From Sporopachydermia quercuum (taxonomy: Eukaryota), in contig BCGN01000009.1 in assembly GCA_001599295.1 (NCBI GenBank), positions 726,413-790,412 of the forward strand: a stretch of DNA of 64,000 nt, written 5' to 3'. Shown one piece after another: positions 28,457 to 55,200 of the stretch. The position numbers and the translations under genes are program-made. Each line of letters begins with the position of its first letter. Within the stretch, counting starts at the first letter, position 1. The notes beneath the pieces were generated by a model, which did not search any database, had not been told where the DNA came from, and worked only from the letters and a program-made list of their open reading frames with translations.

Positions 28457-29359
28457 CTGTGGGAGGATGTGAGGATGTTTGATGATGGAGACCTGATCAG
28501 ATGAGGAAAAGCTAGATGCAGAAGAAAAGAGAACAGTAGTATACTAATAATGCATATGCAATCATTGGCAATGACAATAGCAATAGCAACGTGTATTGTC
28601 TAATACTATAATAAATTAATCTTTAATATCAGAAGGAAATAGAAGCAAGTGTAGATGTAAGTAGAAAGGCAGCAGATATAAGCAGAAACTGTAGGATGGG
28701 GGGTTGCATAGTATATAAGTGTTCACTTGATTGGATGCTTAAGTGTTTGAATACTGTGTGAATTTGAACAATTGAAGATTTATTTAAATGGTTAAGTATC
28801 TATTCGAATGATTAGATCTCTGTTTGAATGTTTGAATGTTTGAATATTTGGTTGATGTGCATGAATACTGTTGATCATAAAGGCAAGAATAGACACTTAT
28901 TTAGACGTTTGAATATTCATTTAAATGTCTGAATATCGAATAAAATGCTTAAACGTTGAATGCTTGTTTCTCTCGTTGTCCACGTAGCGGCAGCTGGACA
29001 TATTCTAGAGACATTTAATACACAGTGTCACCAGTAGATACATTATTCACTCACGCTTGGATATTCTCCAAAAGAAGTAGACAGATTACTATACACCATT
29101 AGCATAATGTCATAAAACCCGATCACTACTACTTATCGTTCTTCCTACTATTGCTGTTTTTATTGCAGTTATCAGCTTTCAGGGCATATTTACTATTGGN
29201 GAGTATATAATAGCCCCTGGAGCATTACTCACCGCATGTAGGTAAAACTTCCACAACCAAATGTATGTGTGCTTCAGGTATTATATCTTTCAGTACTTGA
29301 CAAGTTATAGTACGAAATATATGTATTATAATATAAGAAGCCTAGTAAATTAATAAATT

Positions 29360-30300
29360 CTATTAATTGCTATGGTTTCTTGCTTTTTCTTTAGGGGAAT
29401 TACATTGACGGAAATCGAAGGATTTTCCTTGTATATACCAACAGTGAAGTTGGCTTCTTCCATCTCCTCTGCTAGCCCTTCAGCTTTCTCTTTCTCTGCT
29501 ACTCAGGCAGCCAAGAAATCGTGTGAATCACGCTGGAAGTTAGACGATGAATAGATTGATAGGTCCTTTCTATAGCAATTAGGTAGGAAGTGTGTTAAGC
29601 CGATGCTAAGCCAATTGATGAGGTCACCGATTGAATGGCTTGGATTATAAGTATTTCGACATTTCGACATTTCCCAGTCACTGGTAACAGAGCGAACGTA
29701 ATGGTAGCAAAANGAAGAGATACAAGATAATTCAACAGTTCAATAATATGGCAACCGTAACAAACCAGTAAACTGTTCAGATGTAAGCCTTCTATATAGT
29801 CGAAACTCCAAACAATTATAGTTTGTTTGTATTTTAATCCTCTCACTGCTTCATTACACTTTCATGGTTGACCTTAATAACAAAATAAACAGCTCGCTTT
29901 GCATTGCGTTTGTTTGCTGTAGTAGCGTTTTCCTCCTCTGGCATGCTTCTTACTGTAAAAGCGTTTCCAGATTTACGATCAAGCGCTATGGCAATCTGTA
30001 GAGATGCTGTAGATCCAAGAGTTTTCCCAGAATCTAGAATGGGATGGGATAGCACGATGTTGCGTTTCAAGGGACCAGCCACTAGTCCAATTTCTTCATT
30101 TCATGTTCATTATCCTCTTCATCGGCATCGCTGATTGCATTCTCCTCTCCAAGTGGCCATTGTTATCAAAACTTTTACCAATGAAAGCTCCAACAGTTGC
30201 ACTTCCTCTTCTTACAGCATCAGATATACTACTATTTCCTGGTGCTACATATTCCAGAGTAGAGGAATTAGTTGAAGAGGAACCAGTCCTAATGCAAACC
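29360..30300 (-). pseudogene. Possible decayed membrane-transporter (MFS/Dal5-like) relic
   Basis: Frameshifted, stop-containing peptides EHEMKKLD*WLVP, ALDRKSGNAFT and hydrophobic TVYWFVTVAILL/FATITFALL in colinear order. Confidence 0.3.
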
Positions 30301-48865: not shown

Positions 48866-50047
48866 ATGCTACAACGACTACTTATCTCCCTCAAAACTGG
48901 GAACTGGGTTCCTCCCATTTCCCTGAAAATCGTAATCCTCTGCATCACATGGTACAGCGTATCTGCCATCACAACAACCATCAACAAGGCTATTCTAGAT
49001 CAGTTCTCGTACCCTGCTTTACTAACAGAAGTACAGTTTTTCATGAACGTTGTCATGGGCATATTAACCATAGAAGCACTTAAATGGTTTCCTTTCCTGC
49101 GCCAACTATTCCCAGATGGCTCTGTACCAAAGAACGGATATATCCCACGGCCTACCAGGCGGATTCTCCGGAAAACNCTGCCAATGGGTGTTTTCCAGTT
49201 CGCGGGACATATCCTTTCTCACGCAGCAACCTCGTTGATCCCCGCCGCCGCAGTGGCATCCATCAAAGCCCTTTCACCTTTGGTAACTGTGGGCGTCTAC
49301 AGGTTCGTTTTCTTCACCAGAATGCCTATCGCTACGTACCTTTCCTTGATTCCTCTTGTGCTAGGAATCATGATGATTCTAATGAAAGGCTCCATCTACG
49401 AAGTTCTTACCGGCCATTTTCAAGGTGTCTTCTTTGCCGTGGTATCAACGTTTGTATTTGTAGCCCAGAGCATTTACTCCAAATCTGTTCTCTCCGGCAC
49501 CAGCAGCAATGAGTCTGCTTCCGATATCCCTCTGGCGGAAGTGCATCTCCCTAAGCATGCGCGTTCCAATAGCTTTTCGCACAAGGTGACAGAAACAGCA
49601 TCAAAATTTCTGGCTGATGGCGCAGAGGGCAAGCCTGATAAGCTTACCGTTTTGATTTACTGTTCAGCGTGGGGTTTCCTCTTCTCCCTGCCAGTTTTCC
49701 TCTCGACAGAGCTTTTTTCCGTGCTTTCGGTGTTCGCTGGTGCCGGCAAACCCTTGGAACCTGCCGGAGAACAACCAGAAGCAGGACCTATCAGTATTCC
49801 CTACATACTTTTACTATGGGATGGATCTTCGCATTTCGTCCAAGCGTTGATAGCTTTCCATATAATCGGTGCAATCTCGCCAGTGTCTTATTCAATTGCT
49901 AGTTTGTTGAAACGGATAGTTGTTATTACCGTGACAATGTTATGGGGAGGACATGTGATACAGCGGTCGCAGGCATTTGGTCTTTTTCTCACTGGGGTTG
50001 GTTTATATTGTTATGATCGATGGAGTGTGGGGGCCCATAAGCATTAG
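48866..50047 (+). CDS. Triose-phosphate/nucleotide-sugar transporter family (SLC35E; YJL193W/Sly41-like)
   Basis: LCITWY, FSYPALLTEVQF, PMGVFQFAGH, SIKALSPL, TYLSLIPLVLG, AQSIYSK, SPVSYSIASLLKRIVVI. Confidence 0.88.
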   Translation: MLQRLLISLKTGNWVPPISLKIVILCITWYSVSAITTTINKAILDQFSYPALLTEVQFFMNVVMGILTIEALKWFPFLRQLFPDGSVPKNGYIPRPTRRILRKXLPMGVFQFAGHILSHAATSLIPAAAVASIKALSPLVTVGVYRFVFFTRMPIATYLSLIPLVLGIMMILMKGSIYEVLTGHFQGVFFAVVSTFVFVAQSIYSKSVLSGTSSNESASDIPLAEVHLPKHARSNSFSHKVTETASKFLADGAEGKPDKLTVLIYCSAWGFLFSLPVFLSTELFSVLSVFAGAGKPLEPAGEQPEAGPISIPYILLLWDGSSHFVQALIAFHIIGAISPVSYSIASLLKRIVVITVTMLWGGHVIQRSQAFGLFLTGVGLYCYDRWSVGAHKH

Positions 50048-50050
50048 CGT

Positions 50051-50346
50051 GATGGATGCTATGGACCGGATGGTGGTGGATTTTGAGAATGCCGGTTACG
50101 GTTCTGGGACTCCGGTTGGTTACTACTGTGCACGGCTGCGGCTCTAGGTTCATTGGAGCCGGGGTTGTCCAACCCTAAGTCGCCCTTTGCACTTTAACTC
50201 CAACTCTTGTTGTGAGGTATCNAATTTCCGGGTTTCCTTCTAATAGCACTAGCAAATTCCTCATTCACAACACGTAGTCTCCCTTTTCTCGGCTTGTACG
50301 TGCTGTGCCGTGCTGACTGGAATGGCGAACTCAACAAGCATCCATC
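50051..50346 (+). ncRNA. Unidentified ~296-nt structured RNA element (3'-UTR element or independent ncRNA)
   Basis: Perfect 10-bp closing helix GATGGATGCT/AGCATCCATC enclosing about nine mutually compatible nested helices; G-U pairs indicate the + strand. Confidence 0.55.
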
Positions 50347-52206
50347 TCCTACTGAGAATTGCATTTGGAGATTGTCTATTGGTTGTTAATTCTAATACTA
50401 TGCACTATGTTACACTATGCTACACTATTCTACAACATTATTATCATGTTCACATCTCAAAGCAGACTAAATGACAGTCAACTTCCAGCAAATGGTACTG
50501 ATTCGTTGTTAAGCTCGAGAAAGCACAATCTATTCCGAATTTAACAAAAATTGATGTAAAGCAAGTTAAGAATTCAGTGTCAATAACAATCACATAATCA
50601 ACAAAATTATCAATATCCAATAGTAAAGCTCCCAGTAGTCCTTGTTCTGGCTTTGAAATACTTCCCAAAAAGGGGGAAATCACTCACACAGTTATTCAGC
50701 AGCTTTGAGAGAAGAAATCTACGATTAACGTTTTAGTTCTCATAATAAGCTGTTGGATATAATTCATCCTTCATTACGTATGCTTCAAGACGGTCAAACA
50801 GCCATTGAGAATCATTGAGAAGCGTGGAAAAGTGTCCCAATAATACCAGCTGACGGACTCCAAATCTCCATTATGATCCAGCTATAGAAACGGAAATGCT
50901 CGTAGTGTCGATAGGATTTTTCAATCAGTGCTTGCCAGTGTTGTTTTGTGGTTGATATTTGTTAATAACAATGATGTGGTTTTATGCTTTTCACAGCTCT
51001 TTTCCGAAGCATCAAACCCCGCGGGAACATCCTACCGCATGCAATGATAGAATATAGATACACCGGTGGCAGCACAACCATCATAGAAAATGCTGGTAAC
51101 AATATGTGCAATAATATACTCAAGACTGACATTCGCTTTTTGGCTTTGATTAGTGTATACATATATATAACATATACAACATATACATATATGTAGTTAT
51201 TAGCTGTTTATCTATAAATTATGATATTAATTAACGGGTATGGATCTACTAAATGGGAACCGTGCTTGCTGATATGAGAGTGTTTTTTTTTCTGTCAATC
51301 CGTGTTTGAATTCAGCGTTACGATTTCTGCTGAATCTTATTATATTTATTGCAAGGAATGAACATGGTTCAGCTTGCAGCGGCGGCCCAGTCGAAAAGGG
51401 GATCCTACGGATAATTGTGATAGAATCAATCGGCATTTCCAGCGTCCAATTGAATAGATACTGTCAATGCTGCAACTTCCTGCTACATTGCAGCAGGAAG
51501 CCAAAGTTTGAAATTGAAAAATTTACATGATTTATCAAAAGGGTATTATTCCTATATCGTTAGGGATATTAGTAAAGAATGGAATTTATGGAATTTCATC
51601 ATTGAGAAGAGTTAAACGACGTAATGTACTTAAAATTACGACCTATCTGTGGGAAACCGCTCAAATCTCATGTGACGATTTATCACCAGCAGTGTTAGGT
51701 AAACTAGGATTTTTACATGATTAGATAAATTACGAAACTTGTGATAATCACAATATTTACATTNGCTATATGAACTGAATCTTCTATTAGTGTTTTGTAC
51801 TTTTATCATAAACTTTAATTTAACTATCACCAACAGACAATCCAGCAACACAAACACTAGTAGTACCATTTGTGTACAGTTATTATCATTAGCGTTGTTA
51901 GTATGTAAATTCAATCATTCATTTCTTCATTCTCTTCTTGTTTTTCTCTTGTTATTCTTCTCATTATTCTTCTTGTTATCATTTTCTAGTTAAAACAATA
52001 TCAGAAACATAATGCTTACATGATCTACATAGGTTTATTGTCTACAATGCCATTTTGAACCATTGAGAACAGGAATCAATAGTATCGAAATAGTATCGAA
52101 ATCGGCTCTTAGACCTGAGTTGCAATCAATTCAGTGCTTACTTATCTCTTTATTTTTATTTTCCTTGTAATTCAATACTTATCCTTTTATCATCATGTTC
52201 ACTTTC

Positions 52207-55200
52207 CTATTGAAATCTCCATTTATATACAACGCCCGAAGTGCTCCCAGCCAGAACTTCTGCTCCACAGTCCGTATAAACCATTCCATGGCCTTTTTCA
52301 TAGCTTTTCCCATTGGAATTCCTGTTATTCATTGGCAGCAACCGCAAAGCAATACTACAGATATCTCCACCTCCGTCCTGAGATGCCAGTTTATTAGGCG
52401 CCGTGAATGATTTCTCTAATTGGAATTGCCAGGAACCATTAGCAATTCGCAGGCTAAAAATCTGCACCAGGTTATTCCAAGCGATTGCCAGTGTTTCTGT
52501 ATGCTCCCAGAACTCGTGGCTTTCGTTTTCCGTCCCGGAGAATCCGTTGGAAGTGCCGAACGTTATGCATTTGATGGACTGTAAGTAGGACACGGAGGAG
52601 GATGGAAAGGAGAAAGAGGAAGACCGAGGTCTTCCAGGGCCGTCGGTTGCCTTCCCGTTGGTGTCCTTGCCGACTGTTGCCTTACCATCGCTGCCACCGC
52701 CAGTTAAATCTTTCTCGATAATCACCTCTCCATTGATATCATATACCTTTAGCACTCCCCCTGTGAATATAACAGCTATCATGCCAGTACTATTGCTAAC
52801 ACTAAACATTTCTGCCCTACTGGCAAGCTTCCTTATAAGCCCAAACCGAACGGTCTCCCATACAAACACATTGCCCCGGGAATCAATGCTCAGGGCGAGA
52901 TTGAACACTGGCGCGGTAGCAAAGGCTTTTATTGGTTCAGTATGAGCTCTGAGGCTTTGGATGAACTGGAGGGAGATTTTATGAGTGTTATGGGTGTTGT
53001 GAGAGCTCAGGTGGTTGTTCGTTAAGCCGTTTGCGGATCCAAGGTTTCTGTTCGGCACAAGCACCAAGGGTAAATTTTGTCTTCCGAAGGCTCCCGAAGT
53101 CCCCGCATGCAGTTTCCACGCTGTGATGAGACCGCTGGAACAGCCGGTGAGAATATACCCATTTTCCAGCTTCACGAGCTGGGTGATTCTCTGCTGGTGC
53201 ACTCCTTCGTAGCGGACTCCCGTGCCGGACACTAGGCTTCCCATGCCGCTGTCAAGTTGCAGCACGACATTTTCGCCTATTTCTACCACATTCCCAGGGC
53301 CAGTTTTCCATTTTTTGGACCCAGGTACGTACTCCAGTGTGCGCACGGCCTGGGTTTCTGCCCCAGCACCTAGCGTGGTACCTATTTCAGCTTTACCGCC
53401 CGCAATACCCGCATGGCCCTTGGGGCTGAGGCTCAAACGGCACAGGCACACCGCGCCAACCTCCCGCGTCGGGTGTGGCTTATCAAACACTTGCTTCGGC
53501 GTCTGGCCGAAGTTGTGAATAATCCCTATTGCCGCATTCCTTTCTACCTCGTTTTCGATCTTGTCAAGATCAACAGCGCCCCGGTAGCTGAGATGATGGA
53601 ACACATTGGTGGCCTTTTCTGCTTCAGCCCCACGCTGTTTATACCCGAAAACCAGGTCGATCCACTGATGGAGATGCTCTGAGACGTAAGGGCTTTCCAG
53701 GGCCAGCCGATGCAAGCGGATGAATCGATGGGGGTCGCCGTGGGCCCAGGGGGGCAGCTCTACATTGTCTACTGTTTTCCCTGCGGAGTCCTGCAGCTGG
53801 CCAAAGGCGAACCGGTTGTCGTTGAGGAGAAACTGCGGGAAATAGAAGAATTCCGGGGTCAGCTCGCGAACATCTGAGCTGTTGTCACACGACGAGGATT
53901 CCCATGCTTTCCGGATCGAATAGAACAGTCTGTCAGGGAGATCAAACTTGCCTCCTTGCAAACGGAGGTAGGACTGTGTGTAAGGCTGGATCCGTATAAG
54001 ATAAGACGCCACGATCATGGCGGAGGAGTAGTGTGTTCCGTAATGGAAAGGTCTTGTGCCCGAGCCGGTGCCCGAACCTGTACCAGATCCCGTGGCAGTG
54101 CCAGAAGTCTCGTCAAGCATCTCCCGCATGGCCAGGAACCGTTCCTTGAACAGCAGCTCCCTGTTCACCGTCTGAGCTCCCATGGGCTTGGAAAGGTCTC
54201 TGAACGTCTTCAGGTCTGATAGATCCAACTGGGTGCTTGTATAGTCGGCAAGAACCCACGGGAAGACAGGATACTGCGTGAGATCGTTGAAAGTCCGACC
54301 CGCCAGCGTATTTACGATCATTAGATAGTAGAAGTTTGATATTTCACCTTTTCTCCACCGTCTAGTGGCTGTCGAGAGTCCCTGACCAGGGTTTTGGCTG
54401 TTAGAGAACACAGAGGAGAGCTTACTTGCAAAAGAGCTGCCGGGAGGTAAAGGTAAAGGCGTGTTCCCCACAGAAAAAGCCCGTGCCAGGTCGGGGTCCA
54501 GCACCGGTTCTGCTGGGAAACTATTTTTTCCATGGGAGTTCGCATGGGNATTGGCCGTGCGCACGGCATTCAGTTTGGCGTAAATAGAATCTCTAGTTTT
54601 CGCAGTAGTGGCTGTGATGAGGAAGCTGGTTCTGTTTGAGAAAAACAGCTCCAGGGCGACATCTCTGAGCAGGAATTCACGTTTAGATATCAAAGCGACC
54701 GTTTTTATATCCCAGGAGCGTGTTTTTGTTGTTGTATTCGATTTGACACTTTCAGCAGTAGCAGAAGCCCCAGCTCCAGCGCTGGAAACCCTCCTGGATT
54801 GAATCATTAAGCTGTCTAAATAAGGATCTCTGTACTCCTCCGGAGCTTCCTTGGCATCTAGAATGTCGCCTTGTTTAGTATGGACATAGCCATCAATTAT
54901 ATACAGATACTGTTCACCCAGAATGAGAATTCCTTGGGTTGATTCTAACCCTGTGATACGGGAGATATTCCAGATCTTCTTGATGGTGTCACTGGGGAAC
55001 AGACTTCTAAGGACTTTTCTGTTGTAGTCTTCCTGGTGAGACGCCAAGGAGAAATCGTTGAACAGGCCAGGCGGTTCTATAATGGAGGAGGATGGGGGTT
55101 TGGTAGAGGATTTGGTGGGGGATAGGGAGTTTCTGTCCAAAGCTGTAGATGAAACAGTTAAATTAACTGACGACGTCGACGATGAGCTGCAGATAATACT

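Follow-up and report, generated by a model that had tools for sequence, protein, structure and literature searches.

A GC-rich island directly downstream of a SLY41-like transporter stop codon: a possible lineage-specific structured domain of the 3'UTR

We found that the 296 nt lying directly downstream of a SLY41-like transporter gene form a GC-rich non-coding island, which is predicted to fold into a multibranch RNA domain on the strand of the transporter. With a GC content of 0.507, the island ranked at the top of the 2261 non-ORF windows of 296 nt in the 64-kb stretch of DNA that was analysed as a whole (hereafter the window). It is a real compositional anomaly, and its predicted RNA fold, which differs from the one drawn for it in the original prediction, is moderately supported. 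The single most likely reading, to which we give a probability of roughly 0.4, is that the island may be a lineage-specific structured segment of the transporter 3'UTR, i.e. a selected cis-acting RNA domain; a neutral GC-rich remnant ranks close behind and is nearly as likely. The window is eukaryotic and budding-yeast-like, and the two features around which the argument is built are the following.

48866..50047, + strand: SLY41-like TPT-family sugar-phosphate transporter CDS, 393 codons from the ATG, with the stop codon TAG at 50045-50047
50051..50346, + strand: GC-rich non-coding island, a predicted multibranch RNA domain and probably the proximal 3'UTR, as judged from GC content, MFE, ensemble diversity and periodicity

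The ORF at 48866-50047 matched the Pfam TPT family (PF03151) with an E-value of 3.4e-37, and the protein database contained 185 homologs of it, the best of which were 41-43% identical and some of which were named Sly41 at their source. In an alignment with nine homologs, the motif GLYCYDRW was located within a few residues of the C-terminus in all eight yeast homologs as well as in the present transporter. Since the yeast homologs end near GLYCYDRW, as here, we take TAG 50045-50047 to be the genuine stop codon, and as judged by this alignment the transporter C-terminus is complete. The island then starts at 50051, the fourth base after the stop codon, in agreement with the spacing of 4 nt given in the original prediction. 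The next long ORF encodes a protein of 2769 codons on the - strand, ending at 52207, which from its sequence is presumably a BEACH-domain protein. The island opens the 2.1-kb gap between these two convergent genes (transporter and putative BEACH gene), and gaps of 1-2.3 kb are usual within the window. Single Ns occur 45 times in the window, approximately one per 1.4 kb, with one inside the island at 50222; such isolated Ns could stand for ambiguity codes where a diploid assembly is heterozygous.

Composition was the strongest feature of the island. The non-ORF windows of 296 nt had a mean GC content of 0.353 (sd 0.037) and the next best after the island reached 0.439, placing the island at +4.2 sd, and the earlier description of a GC-rich island in AT-rich non-coding DNA was borne out. 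A 51% GC patch of 300 nt amid 35% DNA requires either constraint or youth; the position of the island at the extreme of all 2261 windows in an AT-rich genome thus suggests constraint or a recent origin. No AT-rich tract was found within the island, the first one lying past 50347.

The non-coding status claimed earlier was likewise upheld. The island lacked 3-periodicity, with a chi2 of 4.4 compared with medians of 16.5 for coding (n=96) and 6.1 for non-coding sequences (n=75), although the test is a weak one for this gene, as the transporter's own last 300 nt score only 8.9. No Pfam match overlapped the island among 40 fragments of the + strand and 35 of the - strand, and a PDB search with five island ORFs returned nothing significant, with noise at an E-value of 0.36. 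Each of the six frames is interrupted; among the fragments that overlap the island, the longest has 73 codons (50253-50471) and runs past the 3' end of the island. We therefore regard it as extremely unlikely that the island hides coding sequence, be it a missed exon, a small ORF or an extension of the C-terminus through readthrough or a frameshift. Its GC content of 0.51 does resemble that of coding sequence (mean ORF GC in the window, 0.430) and an ATG-started ORF of 31 codons is present at 50052-50147, but apart from the missing periodicity, the broken frames and the negative Pfam and PDB searches, readthrough of the TAG would add only 12 codons before a TGA, and the transporter C-terminus is aligned with those of the yeast homologs. 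A resemblance of the peptide MDRMVVD to the CCT N-terminus was dropped as unsupported by searches.

Folding was carried out on the 296 nt with the N at 50222 kept. The MFE structure of the + strand had an energy of -102.2 kcal/mol and contained 94 pairs, 13 of them G-U; it was near-identical to the centroid, and most of its helices had pairing probabilities of at least 0.83. The predicted fold is multibranch and is closed by the same 10-bp stem as the fold drawn originally, from which it otherwise differs. Its multibranch loop holds a 5' hairpin, a central hairpin, two small hairpins and a 103-nt 3' hairpin. The individual elements, together with a short motif that overlaps the central hairpin, are listed below.

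50051..50060, + strand: 5' arm of the predicted closing helix, GAUGGAUGCU, pairing with 50337-50346
50078..50113, + strand: predicted 5' imperfect hairpin (GGA/UCC, UUU/GGA, AGA/UCU, GCCG-GUUA-CGGU)
50114..50174, + strand: predicted central hairpin with apical loop GUUCA (GGUUGG/CCAACC, ACGGCU/GGUUGU, CGGCUCUAG/UUGGAGCCG)
50171..50178, + strand: AACCCTAA motif, the template-like sequence of the original prediction, partly paired in the MFE structure
50230..50332, + strand: predicted 3' long hairpin, with four lower stems, a 16+2-nt internal loop and an apical stem at 50266-50307
50337..50346, + strand: 3' arm of the predicted closing helix, AGCAUCCAUC, pairing with 50051-50060

All ten pairs of the closing helix are Watson-Crick pairs, and its pairing probability was 0.99. 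For the 5' hairpin the pairing probabilities were 0.92-0.94, with z-scores of -2.1 on the + strand and -1.2 on the - strand. The central hairpin (-28.9 kcal/mol, pairing probabilities 0.83-0.97) gave a z-score of -3.48 on the + strand (1/300) compared with -1.58 on the - strand, and is in these models the most strand-specific element. A similar preference was seen for the sub-domain 50106-50281 (z -2.9 on + and -0.5 on -). The main stems of the 3' hairpin had pairing probabilities of 0.83-0.98 and z-scores that were much the same on the two strands (-1.9 on + and -1.8 on -). Its apical hairpin at 50266-50307, however, contains an A.C mismatch on the + strand that becomes a G.U pair on the - strand; its z-score was -4.8 on the - strand, where it ranked sixth among 7524 natural windows, and -2.3 on the + strand. 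As modelled, the strand signals are thus in conflict, with the apical hairpin favouring the - strand and the central hairpin and 50106-50281 favouring the + strand.

The 11 helices listed in the original prediction are all present in the sequence, with canonical pairs only (69 pairs, including eight G-U), and GTCCAACCCTAAGTC was found as stated there. The nested architecture into which they had been assembled was not recovered. It had an energy of -67.9 kcal/mol, or -85.0 kcal/mol after optimal completion, compared with -102.2 kcal/mol for the MFE structure and a shuffle mean of -87.3 kcal/mol. Two of the 11 helices, the outer 10-bp stem and the GGCTCTA/TGGAGCC hairpin, had a pairing probability of 0.99, whereas the other nine did not exceed 0.15. 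The three-way 'arm 1' of that architecture (50115-50206) is the MFE structure of its own sub-window (z -3.7) and ranked 11th among 4124 natural 92-nt windows, a comparison in which arm 1 was framed optimally and the background windows were not. It had also been argued that selection on RNA is indicated by non-Watson-Crick pairs that are G-U on the + strand. This argument is not supported: it is partly circular because only pairing helices had been listed, and 50266-50307 has an A.C mismatch on the + strand. In the shuffle comparison proposed for the fold, the + strand as a whole folded better than its shuffles (z -3.0), and the energy of the fold as drawn lay above the shuffle mean.

The whole-element statistics depended on the background chosen. 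Against dinucleotide shuffles, the MFE z-scores were -3.0 for the + strand and -2.8 for the - strand, with one of 200 shuffles as low in each case. Shuffling within blocks of 148 nt and 74 nt gave -3.0 and -3.3 respectively for the + strand, and -2.7 and -3.0 for the - strand. The z-scores of the whole element are thus alike on both strands, as a DNA-level palindrome would give in such calculations. The two strands differed in ensemble diversity: the + strand value was 33.5 compared with 69.6 +/- 20 in the shuffles (2/80 as low), whereas the - strand value of 64.7 was ordinary (shuffles 68.5; 32/80 as low). By these models the + strand is more stable than its shuffles and has a better-defined ensemble. 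When GC-corrected natural 296-nt windows of the same 64 kb served as the background, the + strand ranked tenth of 319 (z -1.64) and the - strand 92nd of 319. With ten of 319 natural windows at that level, the stability of the whole element is not exceptional. The closing repeat was also examined at the DNA level. Perfect 10-bp inverted repeats within 300 nt numbered 26 in the window, and 36 pairs of 10-mer inverted repeats were counted compared with 28.3 +/- 6.7 in block shuffles, i.e. such a repeat occurs at chance frequency.

Next, we compared the island with loci of related transporters. Of 235 relatives found in metagenomes, we retained 80 loci, none of them more than 39% identical, and searching these 80 with the island gave a best blastn E-value of 0.43 and no nhmmer match. 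In 59 of the 80 loci the C-terminus was recognisable and at least 900 nt of downstream sequence was available. None of these 59 distant SLY41-family loci was GC-rich over the 300 nt that follow the stop codon, the maximum difference being +0.063 compared with +0.147 here. The island is absent at 59/59 distant homolog loci, and thus the element, if functional, would be lineage-specific.

The remainder of the gap and of the window contained several other features. A stop-free, isolated fragment of 68 codons at 51518-51721 on the + strand (match 51527-51721) corresponds to residues ~291-351 of CCT6 (T-complex protein 1 subunit zeta), with E-values of 9e-4 for Pfam Cpn60_TCP1 and 4.4e-7 for CCT zeta in the PDB. 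A word-based search with this fragment found nothing, but a full HMMER scan of a library of 1.84 billion proteins then matched, 13 of the 15 matches being CCT6-like at ~50% identity. No other part of CCT6 was found in the gap by tblastn. The fragment has a GC content of approximately 0.33 and, by eye only, a possible frameshifted upstream continuation at ~51480-51530; located between the transporter and the putative BEACH gene, it looks like a decayed pseudogene fragment. Just upstream of it, on the - strand, lies a strong hairpin cluster (51331-51521) that includes CUUCCUGCU/AGCAGGAAG around 51470-51500. The cluster has an MFE of -54.6 kcal/mol (z -3.48, 0/200 shuffles as low) and holds the best-scoring natural 92-nt window of the 64 kb (z -5.4), and its one Rfam match was at chance level (51479-51497, 19.2 bits compared with a threshold of 34.1, E 0.53). 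In the AT-rich DNA directly 3' of the island, a 10-bp tandem repeat, CACTATGCTA, is present in 3.2 copies (90% matches) at 50403-50434 and may be part of the polyadenylation region. Elsewhere in the window, non-ORF DNA of the + strand at 29200-29600 (GC 0.43-0.44) turns up repeatedly among the natural windows that fold best; intron-like signals (GTATGT ... TTTAG) were seen there by eye, and it is probably an intron-containing small gene and not an RNA gene.

The island immediately follows the stop codon on the sense strand, and no AT-rich tract precedes 50347, from which we infer that it is within the transporter 3'UTR. Transcription would most likely be on the + strand, with the island forming the initial ~300 nt of the 3'UTR in the mRNA of the SLY41-like transporter. 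The 10-bp helix between 50051-50060 and 50337-50346 would then close a compact multibranch domain on the mRNA, acting in cis. Closure of this domain would bring the AT-rich region past 50347, the expected site of cleavage and polyadenylation, to a distance of only a few nucleotides from the stop codon, and by shortening the effective length of a long 3'UTR it could influence mRNA stability or the context of termination. Since the 5' arm of the closing helix would be located at +4 to +13 after the stop codon, a terminating ribosome would have to open the helix, and we propose that the fold could be translation-sensitive. Both the compaction of the 3'UTR by the closing helix and its opening by terminating ribosomes are suggested here from general knowledge of such mRNAs. 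More tentatively, the island may represent a selected lineage-specific RNA domain of ~300 nt with no relative in Rfam, which could act either as a translation-sensitive 3'UTR module or as a stable RNA processed from that 3'UTR.

The rival that weighs most is a neutral origin, in which a GC-rich remnant or an inserted fragment (decayed sequence, captured DNA or a foldback-like piece) has no RNA function and folds well only as a by-product of its GC richness, with a G/T-rich 5' half and a C/A-rich 3' half. Such an origin is quite possible. It would account for z-scores that are alike on both strands, for the mixed strand preferences of the sub-hairpins, for a rank of 10/319 that makes the island no outlier among natural windows, and for terminal inverted repeats of 10 bp at chance level; it also fits the lack of the island at all 59 distant homolog loci. 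The decayed CCT6 fragment in the same intergenic gap indicates that gene decay or the capture of fragments has taken place there before. However, the CCT6 relic is already at background GC (about 0.33) whereas the island is at 0.507, so that the island as a remnant would have to be much younger. No source for it was found: a self-similarity search revealed no second copy in the 64 kb, plasmid and phage collections gave no match, and no signal of a protein relic was detected. The inverted repeat has no adjoining target-site duplication, and the + strand ensemble was better defined than that of 78 of the 80 shuffles. A more specific version of the same idea takes the island as what is left of a MITE or foldback transposon, with the 10-bp terminal inverted repeat marking its ends. 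Elements of this kind have terminal inverted repeats, a flanking target-site duplication and multiple genomic copies. The perfect 10-bp repeats, 276 nt apart, and the internal inverted repeats nested within them are what such a remnant would show, but the flanks (AGCGT and TCCTA by inspection) contain no target-site duplication, the island is single-copy within the 64 kb, and inverted repeats this long occur about as often as chance predicts, making a transposon remnant very unlikely.

An independent, lineage-specific ncRNA gene (a divergent snoRNA, say, or another small nuclear or nucleolar RNA) that lies on either strand and abuts the transporter stop codon by chance is also unlikely, though less so than a transposon remnant. 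GC-rich non-coding islands of AT-rich yeast genomes are often RNA genes, and the ~300-nt length and the helix joining the 5' and 3' ends recall RNase P, MRP and SRP RNAs in outline. The original prediction had reported no recognised ncRNA, and this was confirmed with Rfam 15, which gave zero matches at gathering thresholds in the 64 kb, its families covering RNase P, MRP, SRP, U snRNAs, snoRNAs, telomerase RNAs and the TPP riboswitch. A relaxed search (E up to 10, lax filters) of the 401 nt around the island, in which the rest of the gap was also covered, produced no family match; there were only chance-level matches at the 3' edge of the island, to CoTC_ribozyme (13.9 bits, threshold 58) and U1A_PIE (14.4 bits, threshold 50). 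A tRNA scan found none. No convincing fit to RNase P, MRP, SRP, snR30 or U-snRNA motifs was seen by eye, and inspection showed neither GNRA/GNAR tetraloops nor a CR-I/CR-V-like pair. In box H/ACA RNAs, a hairpin, the H box (ANANNA), a second hairpin and an ACA follow one another, the ACA being three nt away from the 3' end; each box lies 14-16 nt from a two-sided pseudouridylation pocket. An H-box-like AUAGCA (50244-50249) and an ACA (50335-50337) were found by inspection and favour such a gene, but the 16+2-nt internal loop of the 3' hairpin is no H/ACA pocket and the lower stem stops several nucleotides before the ACA, so that this candidate was rejected. Box C/D RNAs carry a C box (RUGAUGA) near the 5' end, a D box (CUGA) near the 3' end and a terminal stem. 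A scan of the gap for C/D boxes gave three weak candidates, none convincing, and in the island the only pairing is that of a degenerate GUGAUGG (50049) with CUGA (50313), which are separated by 268 nt and flanked by a stem of 4 bp; this was rejected as well. A + strand promoter would have to sit inside the transporter CDS, and a T-run terminator is absent.

The original prediction had named telomerase RNA as one option, on account of the template-like AACCCTAA. The same motif presumably also matches a Tbf1-type TTAGGG-binding site; for promoter-element readings built on zinc-cluster (CGG/CCG) and Tbf1 sites, no downstream gene was found. The template of a fungal telomerase RNA is complementary to about 1.2-1.5 copies of its own telomere repeat, and the RNA further comprises a template-boundary helix, a pseudoknot, a three-way junction and an Sm site. 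With CCAACCCUAAG as its template, an RNA of this type would use AACCCUAA, which is able to template TTAGGGTT, and a ~1-kb RNA would fit the 2.1-kb gap. TTAGGG-like telomere repeats are described for early-branching Saccharomycotina in PMC7857110, which also speaks for this option. However, AACCCTAA was found once in the 64 kb compared with 2.18 copies expected, at least one copy being present in 90 of 100 shuffles, i.e. it occurs at chance frequency, and CCCTAA was found 16 times compared with 26.4 expected. The motif is partly base-paired in the predicted fold, its CCAACC part having a pairing probability of 0.83, and the Rfam telomerase families gave no match across the whole gap. The element starts 4 nt past a stop codon, which leaves no room for a promoter, whereas yeast telomerase RNAs are usually independent genes according to PMC6115765. 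Thus the telomerase option could not be sustained, and we consider it the least likely of all the explanations above.

The island is a modest lead rather than a discovery, and the selected and neutral readings are not separated by the present data. If it is a selected RNA domain, selection would hold it at 51% GC compared with 35% in non-coding DNA; it would then be a rare budding-yeast case of a large, GC-maintained structured module at a stop codon, and a case for 3'UTR folding that couples translation termination to the fate of the mRNA. If it is a neutral remnant, it provides only a caution, namely that on paper a GC-rich patch of an AT-rich genome folds well.

Compared with known systems, the island shares with fungal telomerase RNA a possible template for TTAGGG-type repeats (AACCCUAA), but an Sm site, a pseudoknot and a three-way junction were not established in it by eye, and its 296 nt differ from the usual length of more than 1000 nt in yeasts (PMC6115765). 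Like MITE and foldback elements, it is self-complementary internally and bounded by a terminal inverted repeat, here a perfect one of 10 bp; unlike them, it has neither a target-site duplication nor another copy in the 64 kb, and its repeat is expected by chance. Fungal nuclear RNase P, RNase MRP and SRP RNAs are about 250-520 nt long with paired 5' and 3' ends. The island is like them in its size class, in a GC content above that of the genome and in a terminal helix that closes a multibranch fold, but it differs in having no covariance-model match even at E-values of up to 10, and CR-I/CR-V (P4), GNRA/GNAR helix-6/8 loops and an Alu-domain motif were not seen by eye. Among cis-acting 3'UTR elements, the She2-She3 zipcodes of yeast, ASH1 E3 among them, begin at the stop codon or close to it. 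The zipcodes known so far span about 50-120 nt and have defined protein-binding motifs, whereas no such motif was identified in the island, and in the 59 distant loci no such element follows the SLY41-family stop codon. Eberle et al. are said to have reported in 2008 that NMD is modulated by folding of the 3'UTR, which places the poly(A) region close to the stop codon. Consistent with structured cis-acting 3'UTR domains, the island lies directly after a stop codon on the sense strand, is non-coding and is predicted to form a stable domain, with a long-range closing helix that would shorten the distance between the stop codon and the poly(A) site.
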